The notes below the pieces were generated by a model. That model was not told the origin of the DNA, did not search any database, and was given only the letters and a program-made list of their open reading frames with translations. The translations under genes and the position numbers were made by a program. From contig JAVLKG010000002.1 in the NCBI GenBank assembly GCA_032128875.1, positions 608,001 to 672,000 on the forward strand: DNA of 64,000 nucleotides, in the 5' to 3' direction. The DNA is from Candidatus Melainabacteria bacterium 17Bon1m (GTDB lineage: Bacteria > Cyanobacteriota > Vampirovibrionia > Obscuribacterales > Obscuribacteraceae). Shown here piece by piece: positions 36,901-53,037 of the stretch (its first letter is position 1; every line of letters begins with the position of its first letter).

Positions 36901-39290
36901 TCGCCTTGCGCTTCTACGGTAATCGATCGGGTCAAGTCACCCTTCGTCACGGCGGTTGCTACTTCTGCGATAGCCCGTACCTGTCCGGTCAAGTTCGCAG
37001 CGAGCTGGTTGACGTTGTCTGTGAGATCCCTCCACGTACCGGCGGCACCAGGCACCCTTGCCTGACCACCGAGTTTTCCTTCAACACCTACTTCCCGGGC
37101 AACTGTAGTTACCTGGTCTGCGAATGTCGCCAGAGTGTCGATCATCTCGTTGATGGTGTCTGACAGAGCCGCGATTTCGCCTTTGGCTTGCAAGGCTAGT
37201 TTTCGTTTCAAGTTGCCGACGGCTACCGCGGTTACAACGCCCGCAATACCCCGCACCTGCTCTGTGAGGTTACCTGCCATGGAGTTTACGTTATCGGTTA
37301 GATCTTTCCAAATACCGCCCACCCCTTGTACGTCCGCTTGTCCTCCGAGTTTTCCTTCGGTTCCTACTTCCCGGGCTACCCGTGTAACTTCTGCCGCGAA
37401 AGACGAGAGCTGGTCAACCATGGTGTTGATTGTGTTTTTCAGCTCTAAGATTTCGCCCTTAACGTCTACAGTAATCTTCTTGGACAAGTCGCCTCGGGCT
37501 ACAGATGTCGTAACGTCTGCGATGTTACGCACCTGAGATGTGAGGTTCGACGCCATGTAATTTACGTTGTCCGTCAAATCCTTCCAGGTGCCGGACACAC
37601 CTTTTACATCCGCCTGACCACCGAGTTTTCCTTCCGTACCTACTTCTCTTGCAACCCGTGTTACTTCTGATGCGAATGATGAGAGCTGGTCAACCATGGT
37701 GTTGATTGTGTTTTTCAACTCCAAGATTTCGCCTTTAACGTCTACAGTGATCTTCTTCGAAAGGTCACCGTTCGCAACCGCAGTCGTTACGTCCGCGATG
37801 TTACGTACTTGCGACGTGAGGTTGGACGCCATGTAATTTACCGAGTCGGTCAAATCTTTCCAGGTACCGGACACACCTTTAACGTCCGCCTGACCACCGA
37901 GTTTTCCTTCCGTACCTACTTCTCTTGCAACCCGTGTTACTTCTGCCGCGAATGATGAGAGCTGGTCCACCATGGTGTTGATGGTGTCTTTCAGCTCCAA
38001 GATTTCGCCTTTTACGTCTACGGTAATCTTCTTCGAAAGGTCACCGTTCGCAACTGCGGTCGTAACGTTCGCGATGTTCCGCACCTGAGCTGTCAGGTTG
38101 CCTGCCATGTAATTTACTGAGTCAGTCAAATCCTTCCAGGTACCGGCGACCCCTTTTACTTTCGCCTGACCGCCGAGTTTTCCTTCCGTACCTACTTCTC
38201 TTGCAACCCGTGTTACTTCGGATGCGAAGGAGGACAGCTGATCCACCATTGTGTTGATTGTGATCTTCAACTCCAAGATTTCGCCTTTAACGTCTACGGT
38301 GATCTTCTTCGAAAGGTCACCGTTGGCAACTGCGGTCGTAACGTTCGCGATGTTCCGCACCTGAGCTGTCAGGTTGCCTGCCATCGAATTTACGTTATCG
38401 GTCAAATCCTTCCAGGTGCCGCTGACGCCTTTTACAATCGCCTGACCGCCTAGCTTTCCTTCAGTACCTACTTCCCGGGCAACCCGTGTTACTTCGGATG
38501 CGAAAGAGGACAGCTGGTCCACCATGGTGTTGATGGTGTTTTTGAGCTCCAAGATTTCGCCCTTTACGTCTACCGTAATTTTCTTGGAGAGGTCGCCGTT
38601 TGCAACGGCGGTTGTTACTTCTGCGATGTTCCGCACCTGTGCTGTCAGGTTACTTGCCATCGAGTTTACTGAGTCAGTCAAGTCTTTCCACGTTCCGCTT
38701 ACGCCTTTGACCTGAGCCTGACCGCCGAGTTTTCCTTCGGTACCTACTTCTCTTGCAACCCGTGTTACTTCTGATGCGAATGACGAAAGCTGGTCAACCA
38801 TTGTGTTGATCGTTTTCGCTGTTCGGAGGAACTCCCCTTTGAGTGGCGCTCCATCGATTTCGAGTGACATGGTTTGGCTGAGGTCGCCTTTTGCTACCGC
38901 CCCGATAACCCGGGCAACTTCTGTCGTGGGCCGCACCATGTCTGATACCAGAAGGTTGACTGAGTCCATGCAATCAGCCCAGCCCCCGGACACATCACCA
39001 AGTGACGCGCGGTGACCGATCTTACCTTCCTTACCAACAACGGTTGAGACTCGCTGTAGCTCGCGCACCATGCGCTCATTCAGCTCCGCCGCGTCGTTGA
39101 AAGCTACCGCTATTTCCCCGGCAATGCCGGTCTGGTCGAGCGGCAATCTAACTGAAAAGTCACCGCGAGACAGCATTCGCAGTGCCTTTAGTAATTGCTT
39201 CGCATCGATCACTTCTTTCTCAAGTGTCGCCGGCGACAATTTCTTGCTGCCGTTCGTGTCTGTGGAAGCACGAGATTTGGTTGTTGGCAT
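33987..39290 (-). CDS. Poly-HAMP hybrid histidine kinase (OsaA / fungal group III Nik1-like) with GAF and three receiver domains
   Basis: Seven 92-aa repeats ([19 protein letters not shown]...WKDLTD.VN.MA.NLT.QVR) plus one degenerate unit, GAF, coiled coil, [12 protein letters not shown], HATPase, three REC domains. Confidence 0.96.
36870..38810 (-). repeat. 276-bp tandem coding repeat (HAMP-pair units)
   Basis: AGCTGGTC(A/C)ACCAT(G/T)GTGTTGAT-like string recurs near 37408, 37684, 37960, 38236, 38512 and 38788 (period 276). Confidence 0.9.
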
Positions 39291-39742
39291 GGGCGGTTTT
39301 TCCGTATGTTGTTTTTGAGGGCGAACTATGGGCGTTTTGCGGATTTAACAGTGAAATTAACAAAAATTGCCAAGCGGAAAGAGCGCGGGACGTCTCCCGC
39401 GATATATAAAGGACTTCTTTTTATGTTCCACGATTGCATCGTATCGCGCTCACTCCATGTGGGCATCGCGCAACGTCGGTATGACGCGTCAGGTGAGACT
39501 AGTCACGCGGGATAAAGTTCCCACGTATTTATTGAGTTTCCAGACTTTAATGGTGGGAAGTGTACAGATTCCCGAATATTAAATCTGCCATTTAATCTTA
39601 GGTAAAACGCGGCAGAGCCCAGGCTGGAGCTGCAATTTGGTCTGAGAACGAACAGTATGGAGCATGCACTCGTTCGGGGTCTGACCAAACACCCTCCCTT
39701 GGAATCTGTCTGATTCGGTGGCCTCTCGGGACGAAAGTGACC

Positions 39743-40990
39743 CTAAAAAGTGTGATTTGAACCTGCAGTAGTTTCTGTGCCTGAGTTTCCGTTGATTGCG
39801 AGCGCCTGGCGGACTTTTCGGTTCATGCTCAGAGACTTGGCGACCATGTCCATGAATTTTGCGCCGCCCTGCGCGTTTAGGTGGGCAGTATCTTGGAAGT
39901 CGGAATCATGGAAGATCCAGTGGCTGTTCAGATCGATGAATGAAAACTCGCCACGCTGCGCGCGCGCATTCATTTCCGTCATGTACTTCTCGTACATTCC
40001 TTTCGGCATCAAAGACATGTTTTTCTCAGTGAGAGGCATGTTTGCCACCACTACTTTCACATTGTTGGCTTTTGCGTCTGACAGCAATTTATCGAAAAAT
40101 GCAATTTGATTTTGGAACAATTTTTCGTTCGGTGAAGCGAAGCGTTTTTTATACTCTCGAGTGTTATCTTTCCACGGAATTACCTGATGTGGTGGCAGTA
40201 CGAAATTGCCTTCTGTGACCGTTGCATTACCGAGAATATTGCCATCACCTTTTTCGTCGGTACCTTTCGCATCGAAGTTCGAAATCGGAATTCCTGACAG
40301 CGCACTCTTGCCTGCTTCATTAAGTGGCTTGGAGAAGTAGGTCTGCAATTCCAATCGCTTGTCGGAAAGATAATTGATGTTGTTGTAAAACGCTTCTGCT
40401 GCGGCTTGTGGGGAAACAGTCAGAAGGTGCCGAACATCATTTGTTTTGTCGAAGTGACGAAAAAATTGGTAGGTAGGTGTGGAAGTTGCTGAATCAACAC
40501 CACTGTCGATAAAGTCTCTGAGGGTCAGACCCAGTAGTATCACTTTTGGTGCCCGCTCGCCATTGAAAAGTGAGTGCTCTGTGAAATACTGGTCGGAAAT
40601 CATCGCGCCTGGCAAGGCAAAGTTGAAACACGAAATTCCTTTTGGTGCGCCAACTTCTTGCAGCTTATTTTCCAGGAAAACAGAGTGAGGATGCTTTACT
40701 GCGTCGATATTCTTGTTGAGAAAATCTGCGTCAATTAGTGATGTGGGAATCATCATCAATGACGAACCCATTACCACCACATCTGGTGCCTTAGGTTCTG
40801 CCAAATAGGATTTGGTGCGCCACCATTCCCAGGACAAACGCACGGGCAATTCGGTCGGCTTAACCTGTAGGTTAGGTTTGATGACCGAAAGTGCAATGTT
40901 GATTCCAGCGAAGGCGATCAGGGCGCAAACAATCGGACGTCCGGGGATAACGGACAGCCATGATTTCTTATCCTGCTTTTCTTCTGACAT
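39743..40990 (-). CDS. Membrane-anchored SGNH-like protein (DUF1574/DltD/AlgX-like)
   Basis: N-terminal TM, VVVMGSSL, FNFALPG, VVVANMP, DFQDTAHLN (DxxH). ATG 40990 is preferred. Confidence 0.75.
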   Translation of the reverse strand: MSEEKQDKKSWLSVIPGRPIVCALIAFAGINIALSVIKPNLQVKPTELPVRLSWEWWRTKSYLAEPKAPDVVVMGSSLMMIPTSLIDADFLNKNIDAVKHPHSVFLENKLQEVGAPKGISCFNFALPGAMISDQYFTEHSLFNGERAPKVILLGLTLRDFIDSGVDSATSTPTYQFFRHFDKTNDVRHLLTVSPQAAAEAFYNNINYLSDKRLELQTYFSKPLNEAGKSALSGIPISNFDAKGTDEKGDGNILGNATVTEGNFVLPPHQVIPWKDNTREYKKRFASPNEKLFQNQIAFFDKLLSDAKANNVKVVVANMPLTEKNMSLMPKGMYEKYMTEMNARAQRGEFSFIDLNSHWIFHDSDFQDTAHLNAQGGAKFMDMVAKSLSMNRKVRQALAINGNSGTETTAGSNHTF

Positions 40991-41242
40991 TTTCTCGCTT
41001 TCGCAAAATGGGTGAGGCTTTTCGCCGCCCGGCTCATAATTGTAAAGGTGATTGGGCTCCCCGTAGCCGACATTAACCATTAGTTAGGTGCCAAATCTGG
41101 AAAGCCTAGCTATTTGGGGCTCTCGGCTTATACTGTCGGTAATAATGAGCATTTGCTTATGTGTATGCCTCTAGTACTCAAGGGCGAAGCCAGTGATTCG
41201 GATTTGAGTCGCGAAACGCTGCGCCAGTGAGGATTTTCGTGT

Positions 41243-41296
41243 CCTCCACAATTCCTCCATATTCTCCATCCTCAATACATCCTCTTTAAATAGGAT
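41243..41296 (+). promoter_or_regulatory. CTCCA direct-repeat operator plus -10 (copy A; candidate BaeR-like binding site)
   Basis: CCTCCACAATTCCTCCATATTCTCCATCCTC (41243-41273), then 17 nt, then TAGGAT (41291-41296). Confidence 0.8.
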
Positions 41297-41364
41297 TTCT
41301 ACATGGCGAAGCAGCCCCCGCGTTAAGCGCCTTGCGCCTTTTCCGTCCTCTGAGGATTGAGTTG

Positions 41365-42126
41365 ATGCAAATGAAATTTGAGTTCTTTGGCAGCAATGGT
41401 AAAACTCCAGGTTTTGCACGTCGTGTCTCTGCGCTTTTGGCAATTTCCGCACTTATGTTGGGTCAAAAGTGTTTTTCCGCGAACGAATCAGATACCTACC
41501 GCAACTGGCAAGCGACAGCAAAAACTACTCAGTTAGGGCAGCAGCTTCTGAGCATGATGAACGCAGTCTCGCGATCGATAAGCGTCAATCCGGCCGACAA
41601 ATATTCTCTATTTCGCCGAGCATATCTGTATGGAACGATTGGATGCACTGAATCAGCCTTGACTGATTTGACTCGAGTCATTGCAATCGATCCGAGCTTT
41701 GCTGCTGCCTACACCGAGCGAGCAAATTGCTACATGGATTTGAAGAACTACGAGCGCGCATTATTCGATCTAAATCGCGCGATTGTATTGGATCCACGAT
41801 CTGGTGATGCTCTTTATACTCGTGGTCGTTTGATGCTCCTAATGAATAAGCCGAGCCTTGCTCTCAATGATTTACGCCGCAGCCAGAGTAGTGAGTGTAA
41901 GTTTGCGCCTGCCTTACCGGGTGAACTGCCGGCTAATCACTATGACGCAACCGACTATTATCTTGGTGTTGCCTACGAGGCAATGGATAAAAAGGATGAT
42001 GCAATCAGGCATTTTCAAGCATCACTGAAAACTCCGCGACTGGGATCAGTTGGCTTCATCCATCGTTATGCGGATCAACCGCTTGATGCGAAGTACAGAG
42101 TGAGTATGTTGGAAAACGGGTATTGA
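41365..42126 (+). CDS. Secreted TPR protein
   Basis: GAGGA RBS before ATG 41365, signal-like segment, TPRs (AYTERANCYMDLKNYERAL, ALYTRGRL, YYLGVAYEAM). Confidence 0.85.
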   Translation: MQMKFEFFGSNGKTPGFARRVSALLAISALMLGQKCFSANESDTYRNWQATAKTTQLGQQLLSMMNAVSRSISVNPADKYSLFRRAYLYGTIGCTESALTDLTRVIAIDPSFAAAYTERANCYMDLKNYERALFDLNRAIVLDPRSGDALYTRGRLMLLMNKPSLALNDLRRSQSSECKFAPALPGELPANHYDATDYYLGVAYEAMDKKDDAIRHFQASLKTPRLGSVGFIHRYADQPLDAKYRVSMLENGY

Positions 42127-42512
42127 ACTGGAAACTCATAATTCTTGCACTATATATGATGCTCTTTATGAGTGTTCCAGCCGTTGCTTGCAATGAGAAT
42201 ACGAAGTTACAAACAAAATCTGCTTGCCAAAAGCAATCAGTAACCAAAAGACTTTTGGCGAGCAGAATATTTGTACCGACGCAGAAGGGACAGGTAGGAA
42301 CCAACAAAACTAGAAATGCAAAATTGGCTGCAGGCAGAAACAATACTTCGAGTCCATGGAAATTGTTGACGTCCTTGTACTCAGAAGAATCAGCCACCAA
42401 GCCAGCTGTCAGTTTTTGTAGCGCAAAAATCGAAAGAAAGTCCCTTCGATCAAAAGGTTCAAATTGCAGAAAGAATCCATGGCGTAAATTGAGCGAACTC
42501 TTTTCGTACTGA
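42123..42512 (+). CDS. Small basic secreted hypothetical protein with repeated PW-x2-L-x2-L-(Y/F)-S motif
   Basis: TTGA overlap with the upstream stop; signal peptide ending AVA-C; SPWKLLTSLYS and NPWRKLSELFS. Confidence 0.55.
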   Translation: MNWKLIILALYMMLFMSVPAVACNENTKLQTKSACQKQSVTKRLLASRIFVPTQKGQVGTNKTRNAKLAAGRNNTSSPWKLLTSLYSEESATKPAVSFCSAKIERKSLRSKGSNCRKNPWRKLSELFSY

Positions 42513-42546
42513 AGAATTTTTGTGTTGTTTGAACCTTTTCGACAAT

Positions 42547-43257
42547 TTATTCATTTCCGGCTTTCGCTTCGTAACGGTAGCCGACACCGTATACGGCGTG
42601 AATCAATTCCTGCCCTGGAAGAGCTTTTGCCAACTTCTTTCTGACGTTCTTAACATGGCTGTCGATCACTCTATCGAATACCATTTGTTCTTGCTGATAG
42701 CAAAGTTCCAACAACTGATTTCTCGAAAATACGCGTCCAGGTTTTGACACAAAGAGCTTGAGCAAGCGAAACTCTGTTGGCGTCAAATCGAGGACAATGC
42801 CATTGACTGTGATTCTGCCCTGGTCATCGTCTATCTTGAAGAGTTTGGACTCTGGCTCTGCACCACCAGCCGCACGCGATCTTCTGAAGACTGCTTTCAC
42901 GCGAGCGACTACTTCTCGCGGGCTAAATGGCTTGCAAATGTAATCATCTGCGCCGAGTTCAAGACCTAGTAATCTGTCTAATTCGTCAATTCGCGCGCTG
43001 ACAATTATGATTGGGACAAGTGAAAACTTTCGAATCTCTTTGCAAATTTCCAGACCATCTCCGCCTGGCAGCATCACATCCAGAAGAATAAGTGATGGCG
43101 GATTTTTGCGAACCAATTCGACGATTTTATCACCGCGATCCTGATGCTCGACGTCGAAACCATTTTGGCGAAGGTAGTCGGTGAGGATTTCGGCTATGCG
43201 CCTCTCATCCTCGACGATCAAAATTCTTTCCTTCTTTTCCGGCGCTTCAACCACCAC
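42547..43257 (-). CDS. BaeR-like OmpR family response regulator
   Basis: ILIVEDE..IAEILTDYL, LLDVMLPG.DG, LGLELGADDYICKPFSPREVVARVKA, LTPTEFRLL, DRVIDSHVKN.RKKL, VYGVGY. Confidence 0.93.
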   Translation of the reverse strand: MVVEAPEKKERILIVEDERRIAEILTDYLRQNGFDVEHQDRGDKIVELVRKNPPSLILLDVMLPGGDGLEICKEIRKFSLVPIIIVSARIDELDRLLGLELGADDYICKPFSPREVVARVKAVFRRSRAAGGAEPESKLFKIDDDQGRITVNGIVLDLTPTEFRLLKLFVSKPGRVFSRNQLLELCYQQEQMVFDRVIDSHVKNVRKKLAKALPGQELIHAVYGVGYRYEAKAGNE

Positions 43258-44356
43258 GAAGCCCTCTTGCAGTCGGCAGAACTACTTCTATTCTTATTCC
43301 ACCAAGGTCGGATTTAGACGCGGTAATGCTGCCTGAGTGTGCTTCAATGATCGTTTTACAAATTGCCAGACCCAATCCTGAGCCACCAAGCTCTCGGCTT
43401 CTTGATGCTTCTACTCTGAAAAAACGATCAAAGATTTTTGGAATAAGTTCTTCTGGAATGCCGGGCGGCGAATCGTCAAATCTCATCACAACCGCACTTG
43501 GTGATTTTTCCATCGATAATTTGAGTTTCCCGCCTTTGTCCGTGTACCTAAGCGAGTTTTCTAGCAGGTTGATAAAGACCTGGCGCATGCGATTGTTATC
43601 TGCATAGACAGTGCATGATTCGTTGAGGATAGCGCTTTTATCAATAGTCAGTCCTTTCTCGGCAAAGCGCTCTTCGAAGATTTCCGCGACATCTTGCAAT
43701 GTCGAGGCGACATCAATCGGAATGAATGAGTGTTTTAGATTGCCAACATCGAATCGTGCCAACCAATGCAAGTCATCGACTAGTTTGCTTAGACCCATAA
43801 TCTCTGCGTGTAACACCTGCAAAGTCTTTGGCGTTACTTCTTGCACGCCGTCTTGAAAGGCTTCCACCTGGGCGCGCAATATTGCAATCGGTGTGCGTAA
43901 TTCATGCGATGTATCTGCCATCCATTGCTTGTGGTTTTGGTCTTGATTGTTGAGAGATGCGGCCAGACTATTGAGTTCGTTTCCCAACTGACCGAATTCG
44001 TCAGAACGCAGATGTTCAATTCTTGTATTCACATCACCATCGACAAGCTTTCTCGTGCCTTCAGATATGGTGCGCACTCCCTCGGTCAAGTCTTTGGTTA
44101 GGAAATAGGTCGCAGCAAAAGTAACTGCAGAAACTCCAATACCAACTAAAAACAATTCGAAAGTTTGCTTATTGTCGAACTCTTGCCGAAGCTGTACGAG
44201 CTTCATTAAGTCATTCACCGAATGGAGCGCCTTTTCGTTGTATGCACTGATGTCCGGCCATAGTCCGAACGAAGCATAGATTACAAGTATTAGAAGAGTC
44301 GACAAAGAAACCGCAATTGCGGCAAACAGAAGTTTTTTTTCTACGTTGAGGTGCAT
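43247..44356 (-). CDS. BaeS-like sensor histidine kinase (2 TM, HAMP)
   Basis: MADTSHELRTPIAILRAQVEAFQDGV, LSKLVDDLHWL, NLLENSLRYTD.GG, FDDSPPG, RVEASRSR..GGSGLGL. ATG at 44356 lies 4 nt after the upstream stop. Confidence 0.92.
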   Translation of the reverse strand: MHLNVEKKLLFAAIAVSLSTLLILVIYASFGLWPDISAYNEKALHSVNDLMKLVQLRQEFDNKQTFELFLVGIGVSAVTFAATYFLTKDLTEGVRTISEGTRKLVDGDVNTRIEHLRSDEFGQLGNELNSLAASLNNQDQNHKQWMADTSHELRTPIAILRAQVEAFQDGVQEVTPKTLQVLHAEIMGLSKLVDDLHWLARFDVGNLKHSFIPIDVASTLQDVAEIFEERFAEKGLTIDKSAILNESCTVYADNNRMRQVFINLLENSLRYTDKGGKLKLSMEKSPSAVVMRFDDSPPGIPEELIPKIFDRFFRVEASRSRELGGSGLGLAICKTIIEAHSGSITASKSDLGGIRIEVVLPTARGLRGG

Positions 44357-44360
44357 GTTG

Positions 44361-46526
44361 TCAAACGTTGGCAGTCCACAGAGCATTCTTCTCTGGTATG
44401 CCATTATCTTCCCGCAAACCATAACCGGCAAGGGCTGCTTTGAGAATAGATTTTCCATTAACCTTCAGCTCCAGACCGACGACTCCCAGCGATTCGCACA
44501 TTCGAGCCTCCGTCTCAATCGTCCAATTGACTAATCCGAAGAGGAGTTTTGTTTTGTTTTCCCCCTTTTGGATCCATGTGTGTGATTCTGGATCCCAGTC
44601 GCGCCGATAACTAAAACGCAAACCTGGCTCAAAAGTTTTCAAAAGAGACCACAAGAATTTTGATGGGCCACTTGCAGGCAAAAGCCTTTTGGGCAGAAGG
44701 TCCTCCCATACGACTACACCCTCAACGAGCGGTGTAAGCCCAAGCGACATGATAAATGCGTCTAAAAGCAAATCTCCGGAACCTTGTCGATTGAAACACG
44801 CAAATAAGTCGTCAGAGCATAAGAAAGAAACGGTGGCATTGTTCTTCCCTTGCAAGTAAAACTGACCGTTCAAATCTAGGTTCACCTCTATTCTGCGCAC
44901 TTCGTCGCCTATTTCAAATTCATGTCGACAACCGACCGATAATCGCAGGGCGCGTTTTAATGCCGCATTGCAAGTAGGTTGACTAACCGATTGCAGCTCG
45001 TCAGGCTGGCAGAATAGCGAGAATGATCTCTTGTCGTTATTTGCATTTGCTGAATGAATCACGCCGGAAAGATGAAACGGAACAGTTCGACTGCCAAGCA
45101 CAAATGTTTCTTGCACGTGCATGTGTAAATGCGGCTGCGGCGAGCGGCCAGAGTTTCCCACCATAGCAAGAACCTGTCCGGGTGCCACCCAAGAGTTGAG
45201 AGCGACCTTTACGCTGTCTTTCTGCAGATGTGCGAGTAAGACATATGCTCCGGTAGTGATCTGAATGAGAATGAAGTTTCCCCAGTTATTAACAGTGTCT
45301 ACCTCACCGACAATGTTATCGGAGAGTGACGAAACGAATGCCACCACTCGCCCAAAACATGGTGACAAAACAGGCTTGCCATAAGCATAATAGTCTTCTA
45401 AATTGCGACCGTTGTCTTTGTAGCTCATCCCGTCCGCGGTTACGAAAAAGTCTAAAGCATGTTTCCACGCGGCCTGATGCGTATAGCTTCCGTCAAAGCC
45501 TTGATAAATACTCCACGAGCCGGAGAATGGAGCTTTTAATGAGATGCTGGTATCACTTAAACCTCTTGCGAGAGCTAAGCTCTTTTCTTCGATCGTCTTT
45601 TCCGGAAGCGCTGGTAAACGCAGCCAGAAATTGGTCCAGGGTCCGCCACGATAAGGCGCTAATGCAATCAGCACACCATATGTGGTGAGGACGAAAGGAG
45701 TTGCAAGAGCAGGTAACGATTCAATTGATAGTAGGCGCTCTACGCTCATTGACAATATTGCGCACAGTCCTGAAGCAACGAGAGCTACTGTTATGCTGCG
45801 TCTGCCGGGTGTTGTGTAGAGTCCGCCAATAACTGCACCAGTGAGCACCGCATTCATCTGTGCAATCAAGAAGGATATGGTGCCGGGGTAAAAACCTAAA
45901 CCAATTAAAACCAGATGTGAAATGGCGCAAGTTGCTGCTGCAATAAATGCAAGACAGGGAGAACCAATAAAAAACGCCAGGAACACAAGCAATCCACCAG
46001 TTGCGGTTCCATGAAAGTAAACGGAACCTAGTGGAGATAAGAATTTCAATGGGGTTTCTGTAAGCGGTAAACAGTCAAATACGATATTTGGCAGCGATGC
46101 TGGAATGCAAACCGTTGCCATCATAGGCAGCAACAAAAATGCGCACACTACATACGGCAGACCCAGCAATGGCAATCTAAAGTAGTGGCAGATTGTATCT
46201 CTCAAAATTGCACTTACGGCTACGATCAGCACGCAACCGACCGCAAGGAATACCATTACTTTTGCATCAACGAAGTATGTCGAACCCAGCAGCATTCCTA
46301 AAAGGATGCCATTTACGATTTCGACAGACTCATCCCATTTAGGAAGCTCGAGCAATTGTCTGATAAGAATTACCGTCGCACCGCCAAGGGCGCCCATCAA
46401 TCCAACCACTGGATTGAGCATAGTCGTTGTGAACAGCAATAAGTTCGTAGCTGGTTCTCTTAGCGCAAAAAAGGCACCATATCCAGACAGCAAACGTTTT
46501 AGAATTTCTACAACAGCTCGTATCAA
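44361..46526 (-). CDS. Urea-transporter-like membrane domain fused to an M23 metallopeptidase domain
   Basis: About 10 TM helices with NG.L.G and two LP boxes (LPLLGLPY, LPALATPF). Then THQAAWKHALDF, GKPVLSP..G.V, WGNFILI, LAHLQ, GQVLA.VGNSGRSPQPHLH.H, and an extra C-terminal domain. Confidence 0.88.
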   Translation of the reverse strand: MIRAVVEILKRLLSGYGAFFALREPATNLLLFTTTMLNPVVGLMGALGGATVILIRQLLELPKWDESVEIVNGILLGMLLGSTYFVDAKVMVFLAVGCVLIVAVSAILRDTICHYFRLPLLGLPYVVCAFLLLPMMATVCIPASLPNIVFDCLPLTETPLKFLSPLGSVYFHGTATGGLLVFLAFFIGSPCLAFIAAATCAISHLVLIGLGFYPGTISFLIAQMNAVLTGAVIGGLYTTPGRRSITVALVASGLCAILSMSVERLLSIESLPALATPFVLTTYGVLIALAPYRGGPWTNFWLRLPALPEKTIEEKSLALARGLSDTSISLKAPFSGSWSIYQGFDGSYTHQAAWKHALDFFVTADGMSYKDNGRNLEDYYAYGKPVLSPCFGRVVAFVSSLSDNIVGEVDTVNNWGNFILIQITTGAYVLLAHLQKDSVKVALNSWVAPGQVLAMVGNSGRSPQPHLHMHVQETFVLGSRTVPFHLSGVIHSANANNDKRSFSLFCQPDELQSVSQPTCNAALKRALRLSVGCRHEFEIGDEVRRIEVNLDLNGQFYLQGKNNATVSFLCSDDLFACFNRQGSGDLLLDAFIMSLGLTPLVEGVVVWEDLLPKRLLPASGPSKFLWSLLKTFEPGLRFSYRRDWDPESHTWIQKGENKTKLLFGLVNWTIETEARMCESLGVVGLELKVNGKSILKAALAGYGLREDNGIPEKNALWTANV

Positions 46527-46529
46527 TAT

Positions 46530-47969
46530 CTAACTCCTGCGAGCGCTTGTGCCACCGTTAAGCATCCGAGCCATCGCCGATGTGTCGGGAAAAGGCATTG
46601 AAAGATGTTCTGGCAGTCTGTCTTGTTGCATCATGACTGACAAGTCTTCACACATTCTGATGACTGAGCATTCACCGTTTTCGTGAACCAATACAACGTT
46701 TGGGCGATACTCAATAAATTGCATCCATTGAGTATTGTTGTACGCACCTACGGGACTGAAGACTAAGTTGTCTCCTTGTGAAAGTGGTGGCAGCTGAACG
46801 CTGTGTCGCATTACATCGATGTTCATGCAGAGCGGGCCGTAGAGCACCGTGTCCGCCACTGTCCCTTCTGAAGGTTTTGTTGTGTGTACCTGGTGGTTGT
46901 ACCAATAAGCGGTAAACAGCAAGTTTGTTCCGGCATCGAGAATTGCTGCACGTCGCCCGTCTAACAAACGCTTCGTTCCGACGACGCTGCATATCAGCGA
47001 CTGCGCATCATCGATGATGGCGCGACCACTTTCGAATATTAGTCTCGGTAATTCGCGTCCGATTTGACGTCTGTATTGCGTTCCTTCCAGAAGTGCAGTG
47101 CAAATAGCATCGGCGTATTCGTTGATGGATGGGACTACTTGCTCCGGAGGCAGATAAACACTTTGAAGTGCATTTTGAGACGCGAAGCCTCCACCGATGT
47201 CTATGGTATCAATGCAAAAGTCTTCATTACTTTCCAGCTCGCGCATGAATTTGCACATGATACGAACTTGTTCTGCATAAGCGCGAGGTTCTAAAATAAA
47301 GGTTCCGATGTGGCTGTGCAGACCTGTAAGATTTAGGTGGCTGCTGAGCGCAATCATTTTTGCTGCCTGATGAGCTTGCCCACTTTCTATATTGAAGCCA
47401 AACCGGCTCCATGGCTCAGTGTAGCCAGTGTCGAAGTTGAGCCGCAGAACCACAGGCACAACCTTGTCCTGCTCTTTTGCAACGTTCTCGATCAACTGTA
47501 ATTCGTCAAGATGGTCGACGTGGATTTGTGCACCTTCGGCGACCGCGCGTTCGATGATGAATTTGGGCTTGTTTGGACCATTGAAAATGATTTTGTTGGC
47601 TGGAACACCTAGGGCCCGCGCCTTCTCATATTCGAATGCAGAAACAACTTCTGCCCATGACCCTTCTTGGTGCATTATGTTGCAGACGGCGCTGATGTAG
47701 TTGGTTTTGTACGACCACCCGTGGACAACAGATCCATATCGCCTCTCAAATGCTTTTTTTGTATTCCTCAAATTGGTGCGTATCTGTTTTTCTGATGTAA
47801 CAAATAAAGGTGAACCAAATCGTCTCAGTAACTCGACTACGGGAACACCGTATACTGATGATTTGCTGTTGTCGTGCAAGCGAGCCCTGCCAAACTTATT
47901 GATCTCGCCCATTCGGTGCGGCTGAATGAAAGGCGGTTCCCACACAAGTTTTTTTGTGTCGTTGTTCAT
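46530..47969 (-). CDS. PLP-dependent fold-type III decarboxylase (diaminopimelate/ornithine decarboxylase-like)
   Basis: GSPLFV, WSYKTN (PLP Lys), EVVSAFE, FNGPNK, SRFGF, GLHSHIGT, DIGGGF, ESGR, GPLCMNID, GAY. Confidence 0.9.
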   Translation of the reverse strand: MNNDTKKLVWEPPFIQPHRMGEINKFGRARLHDNSKSSVYGVPVVELLRRFGSPLFVTSEKQIRTNLRNTKKAFERRYGSVVHGWSYKTNYISAVCNIMHQEGSWAEVVSAFEYEKARALGVPANKIIFNGPNKPKFIIERAVAEGAQIHVDHLDELQLIENVAKEQDKVVPVVLRLNFDTGYTEPWSRFGFNIESGQAHQAAKMIALSSHLNLTGLHSHIGTFILEPRAYAEQVRIMCKFMRELESNEDFCIDTIDIGGGFASQNALQSVYLPPEQVVPSINEYADAICTALLEGTQYRRQIGRELPRLIFESGRAIIDDAQSLICSVVGTKRLLDGRRAAILDAGTNLLFTAYWYNHQVHTTKPSEGTVADTVLYGPLCMNIDVMRHSVQLPPLSQGDNLVFSPVGAYNNTQWMQFIEYRPNVVLVHENGECSVIRMCEDLSVMMQQDRLPEHLSMPFPDTSAMARMLNGGTSARRS

Positions 47970-48004
47970 GTTTGAAAAATTGCTCCAATATTTTTTTTGA
48001 AATT

Positions 48005-49120
48005 TTAGGCAGACCGAATTATTTGGTCTTGCACCATTTGCGGTGCTAGTCTGCCTTCAGTTAATACTGTCTCAAATTCAGGCAGCGTTACAATGAGTTC
48101 TTGTGCGTGCCGGATGAAGAATGTCCCTGAGGTTGGCTCTGACAATTCCAGCTGGGTAGCTCCAGAAAGCAGCTTCAATACTGCAACCGGTAGATTTCTT
48201 CCAACGGCGTGACTTAAATAAATCCAGGAAGGAAATCTTGGGTTTATTTCTATAAGGTAGATTTTGCCGTCATAGCCTTTGATTACTTCGACCTCTAGCG
48301 GCCCTCGCCAACTCAGTGCACCAACAATCTTTTCTGCGACCTTTGTCAGTCCATCGTCAACGATACTTACACCTGCCCAAGCCTTTCCTTTCTCTGTCAA
48401 CGCCTTCTTCCGCATGGTTACAGCGCCAAGCATGTTTCCTTTTCCGTCGCCTACTGCCGCTAAATTGAGTTCATCGCCGATTACAAGTTTTTGCACCAAA
48501 ACCGGATAACCCCAAGTTGATACCAGTTTTGCAAAAATCGTTTTTGCTTCGAATGCTGAATGCACGACATAGGCATCATAGAAAAGCCCTTTCACGATGA
48601 GTGGATATTTCCATCCTTCTTTTTCGCAACTGTCGAAAAATGAAGGATTACTCAAAGCCTTACTTTCTGGGGCGTGTACATCTATTGATTCACAGAAGGT
48701 TCTCAGATGATTCTTCGCACGCAGATTGAATTGATCTCGAGTCGGAATCAACATAGAAATTCCCATCAATTGCAATTCGCTTTTTAGGCGCCCAAAATTC
48801 TGTAGTTCAGAATCCAGGCACGGAATAATTGCATCGAGTCCTTCCGCTCGATGAATTTGCGCGAGGCGATACAGCAGCGCTTCTTCTCCCTCTGACGGGT
48901 ACGGAATCAGGTAACTGTTGTTACATAGATGCCGGGCATAAAGCCCGGCATCCAGTGCGTCGTATCCCAACCCAATAATCGAACCTTTAAATTGAGGGTG
49001 TTCTTGAATGCATCGTGCAACCGCGCAGCCCGGACCCGGGTTTTCCGCCCGAGCATTGATGCCTGTCACTGCCACTTTACAGTTTTGCCAACTCTTGCCC
49101 TTCTGGCGCGTTGCCTTCAT
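48005..49120 (-). CDS. ATP-grasp (carboxylate-amine ligase) protein
   Basis: VAVTG...NPGPG.AVAR, IIPCLDSEL, YPLIVKG, YPVLVQ, GPLEVE, IEINPRFP.W. Confidence 0.9.
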   Translation of the reverse strand: MKATRQKGKSWQNCKVAVTGINARAENPGPGCAVARCIQEHPQFKGSIIGLGYDALDAGLYARHLCNNSYLIPYPSEGEEALLYRLAQIHRAEGLDAIIPCLDSELQNFGRLKSELQLMGISMLIPTRDQFNLRAKNHLRTFCESIDVHAPESKALSNPSFFDSCEKEGWKYPLIVKGLFYDAYVVHSAFEAKTIFAKLVSTWGYPVLVQKLVIGDELNLAAVGDGKGNMLGAVTMRKKALTEKGKAWAGVSIVDDGLTKVAEKIVGALSWRGPLEVEVIKGYDGKIYLIEINPRFPSWIYLSHAVGRNLPVAVLKLLSGATQLELSEPTSGTFFIRHAQELIVTLPEFETVLTEGRLAPQMVQDQIIRSA

Positions 49121-49389
49121 AGATATCTCCCAAGTTGCAGTATGAATGCTTCAACGCTGCTGGATGCAATTTCTGCAGGAATACCGCAGCGGTCTGCCAG
49201 TGAATTAGAGGCAACGTCCAGCGTACTGCCGCGCTTGAGCAAATCGAGCACTATCAAGCCAGTCGGGTTAACCGAGAAACTTTGTCCTGTCTGCGGGTCA
49301 AAAATAAAACCTGTTTCGCTAACAGCCAGTTGCGAGAGTCGCTCTCTCGACGGCACTTTCCCGCCTGTGCGACTCAGCAGTTCTTCCAT
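49117..49389 (-). CDS. PqqD family / RiPP recognition element (RRE) protein
   Basis: LAVSETGFIFDPQTGQSFSVNPTGLIVLDLLKRG...LADRCGI...VEAFILQL (3 strands + 3 helices). GGAGG RBS before ATG 49389; ATGA overlap with the ATP-grasp gene. Confidence 0.88.
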   Translation of the reverse strand: MEELLSRTGGKVPSRERLSQLAVSETGFIFDPQTGQSFSVNPTGLIVLDLLKRGSTLDVASNSLADRCGIPAEIASSSVEAFILQLGRYL

Positions 49390-49434
49390 CACCAGTTTTA
49401 CCTCCAGTGAAAGTGAAGCGCCTTCCACACTCGC

Positions 49435-49488
49435 ATCTTAGTAGGCGAGCATGGAGAGAGGATGGAAAATATGGAGGGATTGTGGAGG
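49435..49488 (-). promoter_or_regulatory. CTCCA direct-repeat operator plus -10 (copy B)
   Basis: Minus strand CCTCCACAATCCCTCCATATTTTCCATCCTC (49488-49458), then 17 nt, then TAAGAT (49440-49435). Confidence 0.8.
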
Positions 49489-49513
49489 CGGTGGTTTGAT
49501 GTCGGAAACTGCG

Positions 49514-50218
49514 TTAACCCGCTGGTACTTCGGCGGTGTTTGCAGGTTTGTCTTTCAGTGCCAGAAACAGTGCGACTAGCCCTGCTCCCGGCACTATGAA
49601 GCCGGCTGCATTAATAACCAGGATTATCCATTTTTTGGAAGTATTTCCCTTAAGAGCCAACAGAGTCGGTAGGAAGAAAGAGCCGATATACATAAGGAAG
49701 TAGAACATTGCGAACGCATAGCCAAGCGGCTCGCTGCCTGTGAGGATGATGATGCCCGGCGCAGCGACTGCAGCTATGCCGCCAATTACTCCGACCGCCA
49801 GCATGAGCTTAACCAGTCCCCACTTCTTGACGCAGGCAGCCAAAATTGCGCCGGTTATAAGCATCAGTGCCGAGCATACGCCTAAAAGCTCGGCTACCCA
49901 GCCAAGAGCTTCTTTCTTTTTGGAAGGGTCACTCAGGTCTTTAATTAGTGATTGAGTGGCTTTGTCAGCCTCTGAGGCATTCTCTGCTTCTGATGAGTCC
50001 TCTGTTCCAGAAGACTTCTCGGTCCCAGAAACTTTTTCTGTTCCAGAAGTCTTTGCTGGTTCAGAAGCGTTCTCCGGTTTTGCCGCATTTTCGGTGGTAG
50101 GGCTGGTAGCTTCTTTTGACTTTTCTGAGGCAGTCGGAGGTTCAGCGCAAACCGGCGACGGCAGAAAAACAAAGCCGGCTAAGCATAAGCAAACAAACAT
50201 CCGTAAAAACAGTGCCAT
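49514..50218 (-). CDS. Membrane protein with low-complexity S/E/K/T linker and C-terminal superinfection-immunity (T4 Imm)-like hairpin
   Basis: Signal peptide, SGTEK-type repeats, several TMs, and FFLPTLLALKGNTSKKWIILVINAAG...LVALFLAL. Confidence 0.55.
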   Translation of the reverse strand: MALFLRMFVCLCLAGFVFLPSPVCAEPPTASEKSKEATSPTTENAAKPENASEPAKTSGTEKVSGTEKSSGTEDSSEAENASEADKATQSLIKDLSDPSKKKEALGWVAELLGVCSALMLITGAILAACVKKWGLVKLMLAVGVIGGIAAVAAPGIIILTGSEPLGYAFAMFYFLMYIGSFFLPTLLALKGNTSKKWIILVINAAGFIVPGAGLVALFLALKDKPANTAEVPAG

Positions 50219-50380
50219 ATATTTAGCTCCAAGCTCGCCCACAATCGAGAATATAGCACTGCTGGGCTCTATTTTTTGAACCGGTTTGACGACAATTGTG
50301 TCCACGTGAGACTTTGGAATTTGACTGATTCAATTGAACTTTTTCAGTGGATTCGTCGTCTCTATAAAAGGACAACAAAA

Positions 50381-50541
50381 TAGACGCGTTGGTCTGCTTG
50401 CAGGTCCGTAGTGGGGAGAAACTATCATCCTGCTGGTGGACTAGCGCGTCTAAATTTTAAAGGGTCGTTCGTCAGTTGGAACGTCGCGACAGGGGTTTTC
50501 CCTATGGAATTTAGGAACCTCCGTGGCTACAGTGGACCTGC
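50381..50541 (+). ncRNA. Putative structured RNA (long G-U-rich hairpin with alternative pairing)
   Basis: TAGACGCGTTGGTCTGC (50381-50397) pairs with GTGGACTAGCGCGTCTA (50436-50452) using 4 G-U pairs. Alternatively, GCAGGTCC (50400-50407) pairs with GGACCTGC (50534-50541). Confidence 0.4.
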
Positions 50542-50609
50542 GCACTTTTGCGTTTTTGTTCAACTTAGTAGTTTTTCAAACTGCTAAAACCCTTACCAGG
50601 AAAAATTAA

Positions 50610-51257
50610 ATGTATTGGAGAATCGGCATTGCCTTGATGCTGAGCGCGCTTGCGTTTGGAATTTGGATTGCCTCACTGCAGCCCGGCACTGGCAGAGATG
50701 AGTTCTTTTGGCAATGTATGGCAAGCAACGACCATATCTTTCGGAGATTTTGGCCGCAATTTCTTTGGCTTACAATCCCGAGCTTGCTGTTGGCGGTGTG
50801 GCCATTTGCTATCTCTGTACCCGGCGTAAAAAGCAGTTTCAATAAAGCGTCTCAACTTAAGGCGTCCTTTTGGTTGTTTCTCGCCTTTGCATCTATTCCC
50901 CGCTTTTTCCCATGGTTAGCAATTGTCTTGCCTCAGCTAATTGCACAAGTATTTGCAGATCACTTCCCTCAGATCTACCACCACGGCACAACGTTTTGCG
51001 CGGTATGTGATCATACTCTCGCCGAGGATTTGAACATGATACTGCTGCCTTGTATGCAGGCAGTTTTGTGGGCTGCAGGTGTTGCGACAGGCGTGCTTCA
51101 ACTTTTGAAATCATCGAAGCCTGTTTCGAGGCTTAATTCAGCGAAAAGCTATTTGCCTGGCCTCAGCTATGCATGCCTTTTGATGGCTGTGGTCGTCGCC
51201 GATATAACCCAACGATATGTATGGGCTGAAGAGTGCATACACCAGGGATTTCACTGA
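50610..51257 (+). CDS. Hypothetical multi-pass membrane protein
   Basis: AGGA RBS, about 5 hydrophobic segments, His/Cys cluster HHGTTFCAVCDH. Confidence 0.65.
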   Translation: MYWRIGIALMLSALAFGIWIASLQPGTGRDEFFWQCMASNDHIFRRFWPQFLWLTIPSLLLAVWPFAISVPGVKSSFNKASQLKASFWLFLAFASIPRFFPWLAIVLPQLIAQVFADHFPQIYHHGTTFCAVCDHTLAEDLNMILLPCMQAVLWAAGVATGVLQLLKSSKPVSRLNSAKSYLPGLSYACLLMAVVVADITQRYVWAEECIHQGFH

Positions 51258-51426
51258 TGGCGGCCGGTGTTACGGCTGGTGGCATATGCAATAGACACCA
51301 AAGTCGAGTAAATCAAACCTGCCGTGACCATTTTGAAGCTGAGTCCAAGAGCTCTGGTGGCTCTTGCGATGATGGTGGCAGATCTTTTCAAACGAATTCT
51401 TTCTAGCTGAGACTACTAGAAGTGTA

Positions 51427-53037
51427 TCAGGTTGTCCGAGTAGTAGGAGTGCAAATCTCTGGCATTGGACCAAAGAATTGAGCCTTTGTTTTCTTGATTT
51501 TTAGTGCGCGCTGCGCTGCAATGCGGCCGCCTCTGATTGCTGACTCGGCTGCAGGTAGTCCGTGATAGCTGGAGTGCGCAAATGAGTAGCTGTTGGTTTG
51601 CGCGGCCAGGATCTTTTTCATTCTTTTGAAATAGTCCGGACCCGTCACGGCCATTGCATGCCCCCAGCGTGTGAGCTGTACTGTTTCAAGAGAGGCATCG
51701 AACTCTTTTCCGAGGATGCCTGCCAACTGTTTTCGCAATTGGAGTGAGAACCTATCGCGGTCTCCTTCGAGCAATAAGCCTCGCCCTTCGGAGCCGGCAA
51801 GATAAGGTTGGTAAACGGTCAATACCTGACCCATCTCTTTTCTGTAGTGACCGTTCAGGTCATATGCAGTGTTGGCGATAGTTATATCTGGGAATGAGTA
51901 TTTAGACGGCAGCCAGTTGTCGAAACTGCTATTGAACACCTTCTTGTTGAGAATGAAATTGCCGACCAGATAACTTCCATATCGGACCGCATACATTTGC
52001 GCTTTTTCTGGAACCTTGAGATTGACCATGCGAGTAGCAATCATTGGGGAAACAGCGATGATCGCGTGTTTGCAATTAACGCGGTGAAGATTTCCTGCCT
52101 TATCTTGGTAAACAACAGAAGCTCCATCATCCTTCAACGTTACATTCCAGACAAATGCATCTGTCACCATTCTTTGAGGCGTTTTTTGTTTAATGCTATT
52201 TGCAATCGCGCGTGTCAAGGCCGGGTTTCCGCCTTCGAGCAAGTAGCTTGGTATTACCAAGTCTTCAAGCACCGACAGACCTGCAAGAGCAGAGAGGTTG
52301 TTTGCGCCTCCGCAGGCCGAGGATTTCATAAATCCCTCGATCAAATCCATGAAAGGGGCACTGTATCCAGTGAGCATTGTTGAGAGCAAAACTTTGTCCA
52401 GTTTTTCTAATTCTGGTGTCAGCTCGGAAACGTACATAGTGGCATTTCCCATTTTTGACCAAACTGATTTCATTTCTGATCTCAGTCTTTTGAAATCTTT
52501 GTAGATTGCGTTGGTTCCACCATCGATGCCCTTGAGGAAACGCGCACCGTCCCACCACGCATTCTTTTCCGTGCCGATCTTAACCGGCTTCAGTTTCATA
52601 TCAGCGATGATTTGACCGACGTCCCCATCGATGTCAGTTAGGTATTGCGAGCCGTATGAATACCAGAGTCCGCGAGAATTAGAGCCGCGCGCGTTGCCAC
52701 CAGTTTCTTGATACTGTTCCAACAATAGATAGTCATGGTCTTTGAGATGATGCGCCGCAGTCAGCGCTGCCATGCCACCACCGATGATGACGAAGTCAAT
52801 GTTTCGCTCGCTTGCTTTAGGAAACCTCGGAATTTCAGAGTTTCTCAAACGATGGCCGAAAGTGAAGTCGTCGCCGGTCCAAGGAAGCAACTTAACGTCT
52901 GACTTTAGTTTGACTTCGCCCGCCAGCGCCTGCGAGCCTTGCAACATCGAAATTCCGCCCGATGCGCCCAGTCCACATAGCAAAACTGCGAGTTGTTGGA
53001 GAAACTCGCGCCTTGTCGTTTGTTCGTCGAAAGTCAA
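51427..53037 (-). CDS. Tat-exported FAD-dependent oxidoreductase (amine oxidase-like)
   Basis: TRREFL twin-arginine signal ending ALA, GHRLR, IIGGGMAAL.AA, LLLEQ...GGNA, TRWGHAM, AESAIRGG. Confidence 0.85.
   Translation of the reverse strand: MTFDEQTTRREFLQQLAVLLCGLGASGGISMLQGSQALAGEVKLKSDVKLLPWTGDDFTFGHRLRNSEIPRFPKASERNIDFVIIGGGMAALTAAHHLKDHDYLLLEQYQETGGNARGSNSRGLWYSYGSQYLTDIDGDVGQIIADMKLKPVKIGTEKNAWWDGARFLKGIDGGTNAIYKDFKRLRSEMKSVWSKMGNATMYVSELTPELEKLDKVLLSTMLTGYSAPFMDLIEGFMKSSACGGANNLSALAGLSVLEDLVIPSYLLEGGNPALTRAIANSIKQKTPQRMVTDAFVWNVTLKDDGASVVYQDKAGNLHRVNCKHAIIAVSPMIATRMVNLKVPEKAQMYAVRYGSYLVGNFILNKKVFNSSFDNWLPSKYSFPDITIANTAYDLNGHYRKEMGQVLTVYQPYLAGSEGRGLLLEGDRDRFSLQLRKQLAGILGKEFDASLETVQLTRWGHAMAVTGPDYFKRMKKILAAQTNSYSFAHSSYHGLPAAESAIRGGRIAAQRALKIKKTKAQFFGPMPEICTPTTRTT

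Follow-up and report, generated by a model that had tools for sequence, protein, structure and literature searches.

In Francisella, the rhizoferrin enzymes FslA and FslC (FigA and FigC) form a side-chain amide on a diamino acid, after which a LysA-like fold-III enzyme decarboxylates the conjugate. In butirosin biosynthesis (BtrI/BtrJ/BtrK), the ATP-grasp enzyme BtrJ and the fold-III decarboxylase BtrK alternate on carrier-bound glutamate. In lasso-peptide maturation, a B1-type recognition element (RRE) of the ribosomally synthesised and post-translationally modified peptides (RiPPs) works beside a protease and an ATP-dependent amide-forming enzyme. Here we describe a locus that resembles each of these systems in part. 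It lies in a 64,000-nt stretch (the window, to which all coordinates refer unless another contig or locus is named) of the genome of Candidatus Melainabacteria bacterium 17Bon1m (assembly GCA_032128875.1, contig JAVLKG010000002.1, positions 608,001 to 672,000), a member of a lineage of uncultured, non-photosynthetic cyanobacterial relatives. Its core is a cassette of four genes, which encode a PqqD-like protein of RRE type, an ATP-grasp ligase, a fold-III pyridoxal phosphate (PLP) decarboxylase, and a urea transporter (UT) domain fused to an M23 metallopeptidase (UT-M23). The four-gene cassette is real and widely conserved, and it matches no described pathway. The best explanation of the locus is an accessory operon that would control its own expression and build a product handed across the inner membrane.

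A full-text literature search, with subscription journals and supplements outside its coverage, returned no description of the system, and there is no NCBIfam equivalog or PADLOC model for the gene combination. The co-occurrence of UT and M23 domains is remarked upon, without a function, in the accessible part of one 2026 paper (PMC12998343). New here are the putative two-component control through a defined, genome-unique box of putative BaeR type, the loss of the urea relay as traced residue by residue, the fusions of TetR with PqqD and of ligase with decarboxylase, and the genome-level exclusion of lysA, pyrroloquinoline quinone (PQQ) and urease roles.

Conservation of the cassette and its genome context

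Relatives were gathered by a one-genome-per-species scan that yielded 361 encoding stretches, of which the best 80 loci were retained, each with at most 10 kb of flank. Thirty-six of these loci were classed as Obscuribacterales-type by host label and similarity (L006, L052, L053 and L059 carry other or uninformative labels). In 71 of the 71 loci with at least 3 kb upstream, tblastn with the window proteins places the PqqD-like, ATP-grasp, decarboxylase and UT-M23 genes collinearly on the same strand; co-conservation of these four core genes, set in advance as a check on the original prediction, is thus borne out. The PqqD-like and ATP-grasp genes share a 4-nt overlap in 39 of 70 loci. Hosts include Obscuribacterales/Melainabacteria, Zetaproteobacteria (Mariprofundus, Ghiorsea) and Gammaproteobacteria (Methylococcales, Thiotrichaceae and others), as well as Magnetococcales, one alphaproteobacterium and one Vulcanimicrobiota metagenome-assembled genome. 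Of the candidates scored, 298 are related to the fusion protein at E ≤ 0.001; they are full-length (~720 aa), and 'urea transporter' is the only name given to them in the sources.

Could these be chance neighbours with housekeeping roles, i.e., lysA, urea uptake, pqqD and a generic two-component system? Each protein taken alone does bear a generic family name, and the public labels are equally generic. However, the collinear order holds across several phyla, fused forms of the proteins exist, and the housekeeping functions are found elsewhere or not at all. The true lysA is on contig C10 (429.8 bits), and the decarboxylase described here is not the genome's lysA, which answers another of the checks set in advance. 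A pqqC gene (301.7 bits) and an adjoining PqqD gene (48.4 bits) occur at C6:215015-215991; the PQQ pathway is thus probably present elsewhere in the genome, and the PqqD-like gene of the window is the second PqqD-domain gene. None of the 12 open reading frames (ORFs) scanned around the locus is a pqqA/B/C/E. The genome lacks a urease alpha subunit (best match 36.1 bits against a cut-off of 680), and the fusion is its sole UT gene. These findings uphold the earlier contention that the locus serves neither PQQ synthesis nor urea catabolism. With the urea relay and LysA motifs lost and a regulatory box private to the locus (see below), we consider chance association of housekeeping genes extremely improbable.

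The enzymes and the UT-M23 pore

By sequence, the decarboxylase is FslC-like, not LysA. It falls under the cut-offs of both the lysA model TIGR01048 (219.1 bits against 297.9) and the FslC model NF041039 (205.8 against 500), and among solved structures it is closest to FslC, N-citrylornithine decarboxylase (7kh2, E 3.7e-50), and less close to Methanocaldococcus jannaschii LysA (E 3.7e-41); BtrK (7ru7, 2j66) is distant at E ~1e-16. In alignments, the PLP lysine (SYKTN), HIGT, GGG and GAY are kept. The LysA motifs CESSD and NDMMRP are replaced, reading CMNID and NLLFTA here and CMQHD and HTIPTI in FslC. In LysA, the residues of these two motifs hold the far end of diaminopimelate. The decarboxylase of the window, like FslC with its amide-linked ornithine, would then act on an amino acid that bears an uncharged amide at its far end.

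The parallel with rhizoferrin synthesis does not extend to the rest of the pathway. The Francisella ligase is a synthetase of the siderophore type that is independent of non-ribosomal peptide synthetases (NIS), whereas the ligase here is an ATP-grasp enzyme, and no IucA/IucC-type (NIS synthetase) gene occurs in the conserved neighbourhood of the 80 loci. Siderophore receptor and exporter genes are also missing here, and the PqqD-like protein and UT-M23 have no counterpart there. The butirosin system shares the pairing of an ATP-grasp enzyme with a fold-III decarboxylase and a small accessory protein that presents the substrate. However, the butirosin carrier is an acyl carrier protein thioester, in place of a PqqD/RRE fold, and the similarity to BtrK is far weaker than that to FslC.

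For the ATP-grasp ligase, the nearest solved structure is an uncharacterised structural-genomics protein (2pn1, profile E 6.8e-15). The profile also matches carbamoyl-phosphate synthetase and, weakly, VanA and Ddl, and the Atlas neighbours are ATPgrasp_Ter / PylC-like_N clusters. No relative has a functional name, the labels being 'carbamoyl-phosphate synthase large subunit' or 'ATP-grasp domain-containing protein'. In several proteins of 824-934 aa, the ligase and decarboxylase are joined in a single chain (P0245, with 854 aa and 52% identity to the window ligase, P0247, and P0333-P0337). A separate family of ~710 aa apparently contains two ATP-grasp modules. The intact cassette across phyla, the ligase-decarboxylase fusion and the private domain of UT-M23 described below together point to an undescribed biochemical route.

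The PqqD-like protein passes the PqqD hidden Markov model, as would be expected for the RRE-like protein originally predicted. Its family profile matches the lasso-peptide RREs TfuB1 (E 2.7e-7) and TbiB1 (E 4.7e-6), with PqqD 3g2b at 0.073; a single-sequence search against solved structures found nothing at E ≤ 1, and the family profile alone recovered the RREs. The best NCBIfam match is the lasso PqqD chaperone model (34.3 bits, under the cut-off of 70). A core of LAxSxxGFxFDPxxGxSFxxN is conserved and the C-terminus is variable, so the protein is not a carrier of LysW type, which would have a fixed acidic tail. A complex prediction for the ATP-grasp and PqqD-like proteins scored 0.00 and gives no verdict on binding.

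In Zetaproteobacteria, Magnetococcales and some Gammaproteobacteria (22 of 70 loci), a longer protein of 255-277 aa carries the PqqD domain as its C-terminal part. Of four such long forms tested, one has an N-terminal TetR helix-turn-helix (HTH) domain (L081:1857-2648, 28.9 bits, cut-off 24), a second has a weak TetR HTH match under the cut-off (L032:2602-3420, 18.3 bits), and those of L069 and L070 have none. It appears that the long-form lineages have a TetR-type regulator fused to the PqqD domain, and that the window lineage is regulated by a two-component system instead.

These features bear on the possibility, also raised in the original prediction, that the cassette is a non-canonical RiPP pathway. 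Its precursor gene would lie elsewhere in the genome, and unrelated enzymes would divide the labour as in lasso-peptide maturation: the PqqD-like protein would bind the leader, the ATP-grasp enzyme would make a side-chain or C-terminal amide, the decarboxylase would modify the appended residue, and the M23 domain would remove the leader. The matches to TfuB1, TbiB1 and the lasso chaperone model fit this scheme, as do the translational coupling of PqqD and ligase genes and the occurrence together of a B1-homologous RRE, a protease and an ATP-dependent amide ligase. The components differ in kind, however. The protease is M23 here and transglutaminase-like in lasso systems, the ligase is ATP-grasp here and asparagine-synthetase-like there, and the decarboxylase and membrane pore of the cassette are additions. 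The NCBIfam matches at E ≤ 0.01 include no model for a graspetide ATP-grasp, lasso B2 or lasso C enzyme, and a modified peptide could hardly traverse a UT-type pore. The long PqqD forms, with a TetR-type HTH in two of the four tested, suggest regulation or ligand sensing as much as leader binding. Around the core of the loci searched, neither a precursor gene nor any other conserved small ORF turned up. We regard a RiPP pathway as improbable.

So, is the fusion protein a urea channel? Its AlphaFold2 (AF2) model, built from 58 sequences, has a predicted local distance difference test (pLDDT) score of 91.8 and a predicted template-modelling (pTM) score of 0.84. The first ~300 residues resemble urea transporters in Foldseek comparisons (dvUT, 3me1, template-modelling (TM) score 0.84 by target; range 0.75-0.84), and two LP..PF repeats are present, as in the dvUT, UT-A and UT-B proteins. 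In the accessible part of PMC11589576, the urea recognition motif of hUT-A2 is given as Q67/T176/Q231/T338, and alanine mutants are reported to impair urea permeation. We aligned the fusion family profile to hUT-A2 (8xd7) and tallied 58 members at the pore positions. The equivalent of Q67 is S or A in 55 of the 58, that of T176 is G or S in 57, that of Q231 is S, A or G in 56, and that of T338 is A or S in 57. By contrast, L127 and N124 are kept in all 58 and L291 in 55. As the fold and hydrophobic lining are retained but the polar Q-T-T-Q relay is replaced by small residues, UT-M23 is unlikely to be a urea channel, and its constriction is probably wider than that of urea transporters. A pore fused to a peptidase and a private domain further sets it apart from the described transporters. 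This would be the first UT fold reused beyond urea and joined to a peptidase on the inner face of the membrane.

The middle of the fusion resembles LytM/M23 domains (Foldseek: DipM, Csd, EnpA, LasA). Residues H350, D359, H433, H466 and H468 are invariant in 58 of 58 members, and H350 and D359 may form the first metal pair (H-x8-D). The protein has no signal peptide. In the alignment, the second LP..PF repeat falls on the hUT-A2 segment labelled as extracellular loop 2b (P336) and helix 5b in the accessible part of PMC11589576. By this homology, the last UT helix (T5b) runs from outside to inside, so the M23 and C-terminal domains should be cytoplasmic. A hydropathy and positive-inside count was too coarse for helix assignment, and topology is argued from homology instead. 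Cleavage of peptidoglycan cross-bridges, the role suggested for M23 in the original prediction, is therefore unlikely, because the domain follows a UT helix predicted to end in the cytoplasm.

The 225 C-terminal residues of the fusion were also modelled alone (AF2 pLDDT 91.9, pTM 0.88). Foldseek gave no match for this domain at E ≤ 0.001, the best being LolA (2zpc, E 0.016, TM ~0.3). The best matches in VIA comparison were to vitellogenin at Z 10.0, to lipovitellin at Z 9.0 and to LolA at Z 7.0, where the top background match usually reaches Z 7-8; any likeness to open beta-barrels is no more than moderate. The domain profile matches 314 clusters among 1.84 billion. Among 150 of these clusters listed, long proteins carry the domain at the C-terminus and the short ones are fragment-like. 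Thus, by the sequences found, the domain appears private to the UT-M23 architecture.

An alternative role for an M23 enzyme in the cytoplasm is the editing of cell-wall precursors or muropeptides, in which the enzymes would act on peptidoglycan stem peptides. On induction by envelope stress, the decarboxylase would act on the free D-centre of peptide-bound diaminopimelate, the ATP-grasp enzyme would add a residue, as the ATP-grasp D-aspartate ligase does in enterococci, and M23 would trim the peptide. The solved M23 relatives are indeed peptidoglycan enzymes, LysA-type enzymes accept a centre whose other end is amide-bound, as FslC does, VanA and Ddl are among the weak ATP-grasp matches, the regulator is BaeR-like, and a TPR (tetratricopeptide repeat) protein would be co-regulated with the operon. 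However, the 80 loci show no co-conservation of the core with a mur, fem, pbp or amidase gene, and the cassette occurs in just 44 of the 107 species of the order. The predicted location of M23 is away from the sacculus, and muropeptide editing leaves the UT-fold pore and the PqqD-like protein without a role. On balance, we find this explanation unlikely.

Putative two-component control and probable envelope partners

The two transcription units at the locus, the six-gene operon that contains the cassette and a TPR unit, are preceded by boxes B and A, respectively (Table 1). The pair forms I1, the longest inverted repeat in 39500-51500 (42 nt, 86% complementary, 36/42). Because the units face each other, the box has the same orientation relative to each. 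In direct reading, the boxes agree at 29 of the first 31 nt, and each carries CCTCCA, CCTCCA and T(C/T)TCCA spaced 10-11 bp apart, with a TAnnAT hexamer ~10 nt further on. The box core has only two sites in the 7.55-Mb genome (26-nt degenerate pattern, ≤ 3 mismatches), and the reversed pattern, used as a control, has none. The shared 31-bp element that was originally proposed as an operator is therefore confirmed as a near-identical and genome-unique pair. A consensus scan for promoters and terminators gave counts not above those of shuffled sequences, with no site coinciding with the boxes.

A fuzzy search (≤ 4 substitutions) recovered the box in 20 of the 80 loci, all Obscuribacterales-type, and always before the first gene of a unit. 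It is upstream of PqqD where PqqD leads (L005-L008, L010-L014, L016-L019, L024, L030) and upstream of TPR in L005-L009, as well as in L044, L053, L059 and L062, where TPR leads the operon. The box is found twice in window-like arrangements (L005-L008); in L009, whose contig is cut, the TPR copy alone is seen. This pattern, in which the box follows the leading gene and is doubled in window-like loci, supports the predicted co-regulation of the cassette with the TPR unit.

The orthologous boxes read TCTCCATAATTTCTCCATAGTTTCCAT or near, and the boxes and their orthologues contain TCTCCAYAA and TTCTCCATA. Published BaeR consensus sites, as given in the accessible part of PMC3799227, are TCTNCANAA and TTTTTCTCCATDATTGGC. 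The box matches the published consensus (PMC3799227), including TCTNCANAA and TTTTTCTCCATDATT, and is a putative BaeR-type site. The best NCBIfam match of the response regulator is BaeR (291.2 bits, under the cut-off of 380). The histidine kinase best matches BaeS (330.5 against 500, and also 324.2 against 603), and does so only at positions 156-457, without the BaeS sensor region. BaeSR-like is a fair label, as these are the best models but both proteins score under the equivalog cut-offs; the family assignment of the original prediction stands in this qualified form. Its further suggestion of BaeS-like envelope-stress sensing goes beyond what these matches show. As read from sequence, the kinase has two membrane helices with a loop of ~35 residues between them; with almost no periplasmic domain, a signal from the membrane or from a partner is likelier than a periplasmic ligand.

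As in the BaeSR systems of Escherichia coli and Salmonella, TCTCCAYAA-type repeats are present and self-regulation is predicted. In contrast, the predicted targets here are the cassette and the TPR unit, not efflux pumps or spy, and there are two sites in the genome. In 30 of the 31 Obscuribacterales-type loci with sufficient flank downstream, the genes immediately after the fusion are those of the kinase and regulator; the same holds in one of 34 other loci (L078). In the zetaproteobacterial locus L039, a divergent BaeSR-like pair adjoins the cassette upstream. For the window lineage, unlike for others, the dedicated two-component system and two-site box offer a practical means of inducing the operon in a heterologous host, so that its product and its inducing signal can be sought.

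Homologues of the TPR protein adjoin the cassette in 24 of the 36 Obscuribacterales-type loci. In the other 44 loci, a ~207-aa TPR protein with a signal peptide follows the fusion in 35, and a 305-aa protein with a signal peptide, an aromatic C-terminus and no Pfam match follows it in 37. The occurrence of TPR genes next to the cassette in both groups suggests that a periplasmic TPR partner recurs in separate lineages. In its Atlas model, the 305-aa protein looks like an outer-membrane barrel of the YaiO family (TM 0.75 by query and 0.87 by target), and its Atlas neighbours include TPR-YaiO fusions and one glycosyltransferase-barrel fusion. The 129-aa secreted protein encoded after the TPR gene in the window is poorly conserved, with tblastn matches only in L005 (66%) and L007 (41%), and has no Pfam or NCBIfam match. 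In ten Obscuribacterales-type loci without the window-type TPR (L011:5849-6520 and nine others), a 223-aa TPR-plus-thioredoxin protein is encoded just upstream of the box.

We propose an inducible pathway in the cytoplasm in which ligation precedes decarboxylation; its product would be released at the pore, through which it would reach TPR partners in the periplasm. We put the chances of this pathway at about even. The BaeR-like regulator would bind three CTCCAYA-type direct repeats that overlap the -35 elements of two promoters, those of its own operon and of the TPR unit. The ATP-grasp ligase would join a carboxylate and an amine as an amide, with one partner keeping a free alpha-amino-acid centre, and the PqqD-like protein, as a homologue of leader-binding RREs, may present a peptide or peptide-like acceptor to it. 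The FslC-like decarboxylase would then strip the alpha-carboxylate of that centre, leaving a primary amine on an amide-linked conjugate. On the cytoplasmic face, the M23 and private beta-rich domains may cut or release the product at the pore mouth, from where it would cross the altered UT-fold pore to the periplasm. There, the TPR protein with its signal peptide would receive it, possibly in concert with the YaiO-like outer-membrane barrel in Proteobacteria. A function assigned along these lines would re-annotate hundreds of proteins now mislabelled as 'urea transporter' or 'carbamoyl-phosphate synthase'.

Several observations weigh against this pathway. Being narrow, a UT pore would admit only a small or unbranched molecule, and its widening here is deduced from residue changes. 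The cytoplasmic placement of M23 rests on homology with the topology of eukaryotic urea transporters. The peptide expected for an RRE is missing: in the 1.5 kb before and the 4.5 kb after the core, the conserved clusters of 18-90-aa ORFs are all shadow frames of real genes, in a search (blastp-short at E 1e-3) that would overlook short peptides of variable sequence and genes not linked to the cassette. The other 16 Obscuribacterales-type loci, most of them TPR-led, gave no match to the box at ≤ 4 substitutions. BLASTP detects no similarity between the window TPR protein and its proteobacterial counterpart (E 4.5), which makes their shared role an assumption. The cassette is also patchy: of the 107 species genomes in the order, 44 have the fusion, as do 17 of the 39 of high quality, and its presence is uneven even within genera. 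This indicates an accessory trait and carries no information on chemistry.

The partners in the envelope invite comparison with exporters of secreted polymers. PgaA, BcsC and AlgK are parts of such systems, which combine TPRs with an outer-membrane barrel (AlgE in the case of AlgK). The proteobacterial cassette similarly has a periplasmic TPR protein and a YaiO-like barrel after the pore gene. However, there is no glycosyltransferase, the window locus has a TPR protein and no barrel, and the likeness is one of predicted structure. In a more speculative version of the pathway, the ligase and decarboxylase would work iteratively to grow a side-chain-free polyamide of the poly-4-aminobutyrate or poly-beta-alanine type. 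An acidic amino acid would be added through its side-chain carboxylate to a terminal amine, and removal of the alpha-carboxylate would generate a new terminal amine. The PqqD-like protein would hold the chain by backbone pairing, and the widened UT-fold pore would thread it, as an unbranched chain. M23, whose family favours glycine-type bonds lacking side chains, would set the chain length, and the TPR protein and outer-membrane barrel would export the chain in the manner of polymer secretion systems. We think this quite unlikely, a long shot; if true, it would represent a new kind of secreted bacterial polymer, with the urea-channel fold reused as a translocon.

Layout of the locus and its surroundings

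As judged from the ORF list and translations, the locus comprises eight genes in two convergent units, six on the minus strand and two on the plus strand (Table 1). In order of transcription, the minus-strand genes encode the PqqD-like protein, ATP-grasp ligase, decarboxylase, UT-M23, histidine kinase and response regulator. By coordinates, the successive junctions are a 4-nt overlap, a 35-nt gap, a 3-nt gap, a 4-nt gap (with the kinase start at ATG 44356; the longest kinase ORF overlaps UT-M23 by 98 nt) and an 11-nt overlap. On the plus strand, the likely TPR start is the ATG at 41365, which has GAGGA 8-9 nt before it. Every named domain in the locus exceeds its curated Pfam cut-off. The ORFs and Pfam matches confirm the originally described arrangement of six minus-strand genes, separated by overlaps or gaps of at most 35 nt, converging on a TPR and small secreted gene pair. 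The inverted repeat I4 between the units was missed by the terminator scan.

Table 1. Coordinates of genes, domains and repeats at the locus, in window positions (bit scores are followed by cut-offs where available).
Feature	Position	Strand	Details
Regulator box A, upstream of TPR unit	41243..41284	+	Inverted repeat I1; direct repeats CCTCCA / CCTCCA / TCTCCA at 10-11 bp spacing, then -10-like TAGGAT
TPR protein, N-terminal signal-peptide-like segment	41365..42126, longest ORF from TTG 41332	+	TPR_1 73 bits and other TPR families
129-aa basic secreted or lipoprotein-like protein	42123..42512	+	Hydrophobic N-terminus ending AVAC; overlaps TPR gene end by 4 nt
Inverted repeat I4 between convergent units, possible two-way terminator	42452..42539		26-nt arms, 77% complementary, 36 nt apart
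OmpR/PhoB-family response regulator, BaeR-like	42547..43257	-	Response_reg 96.1 bits, Trans_reg_C 80.3 bits
Histidine kinase (HAMP-HisKA-HATPase)	43247..44356, longest ORF to 44458	-	Pfam HisKA, HAMP, HATPase_c
UT-M23 fusion, 721 aa	44361..46526	-	UT, M23 and unnamed C-terminal domain
C-terminal beta-rich domain of fusion, ~225 aa, no Pfam family	44364..45038	-	AF2 model
M23 (LytM-type) metallopeptidase domain of fusion	45042..45545	-	Pfam Peptidase_M23 (PF01551) 44.4, cut-off 28.7
UT-fold membrane pore domain of fusion, residues 1-295	45642..46526	-	Pfam UT (PF03253) 87.4, cut-off 25
Fold-III PLP decarboxylase, FslC-like	46530..47969	-	Orn_Arg_deC_N 114.9, cut-off 23.4
ATP-grasp ligase (ATPgrasp_Ter / PylC-like group)	48005..49120	-	PF15632 32.3, cut-off 29.1
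PqqD-like RRE-type protein, ~90 aa	49117..49389, longest ORF from GTG 49428	-	PF05402 34.0, cut-off 23.4
Regulator box B, upstream of six-gene operon	49447..49488	-	Inverted repeat I1 partner; then -10-like TAAGAT

None of seven locus proteins matched a PADLOC defence model. The locus is flanked by genes for a DUF1574 protein (39743-41080, minus strand) and a flavin amine-oxidase/PigB-like protein (51427-53076, minus strand). Both are syntenic only in the nearest relatives (L005-L010) and so are probably outside the system. The next gene noted past DUF1574 encodes a hybrid sensor kinase of 1767 aa (33987-39290, minus strand) with eight HAMP stretches, a GAF domain, HisKA/HATPase and three receiver-domain stretches; nothing links it to the cassette.

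Sequencing runs X2-X4, recorded as RNA-Seq, cover the region 39500-51500 in single contigs of 18-48 kb, with flat depth across the units of both strands and the flanks. They thus behave like DNA, contrary to how they are labelled. The gene directly upstream of box B encodes a 263-aa membrane protein (49514-50305, minus strand) that is conserved only in the closest relatives, L005-L010. Its gene includes four 18-nt tandem units at 49983-50072, which encode a Ser/Gly/Thr/Glu-rich stretch.

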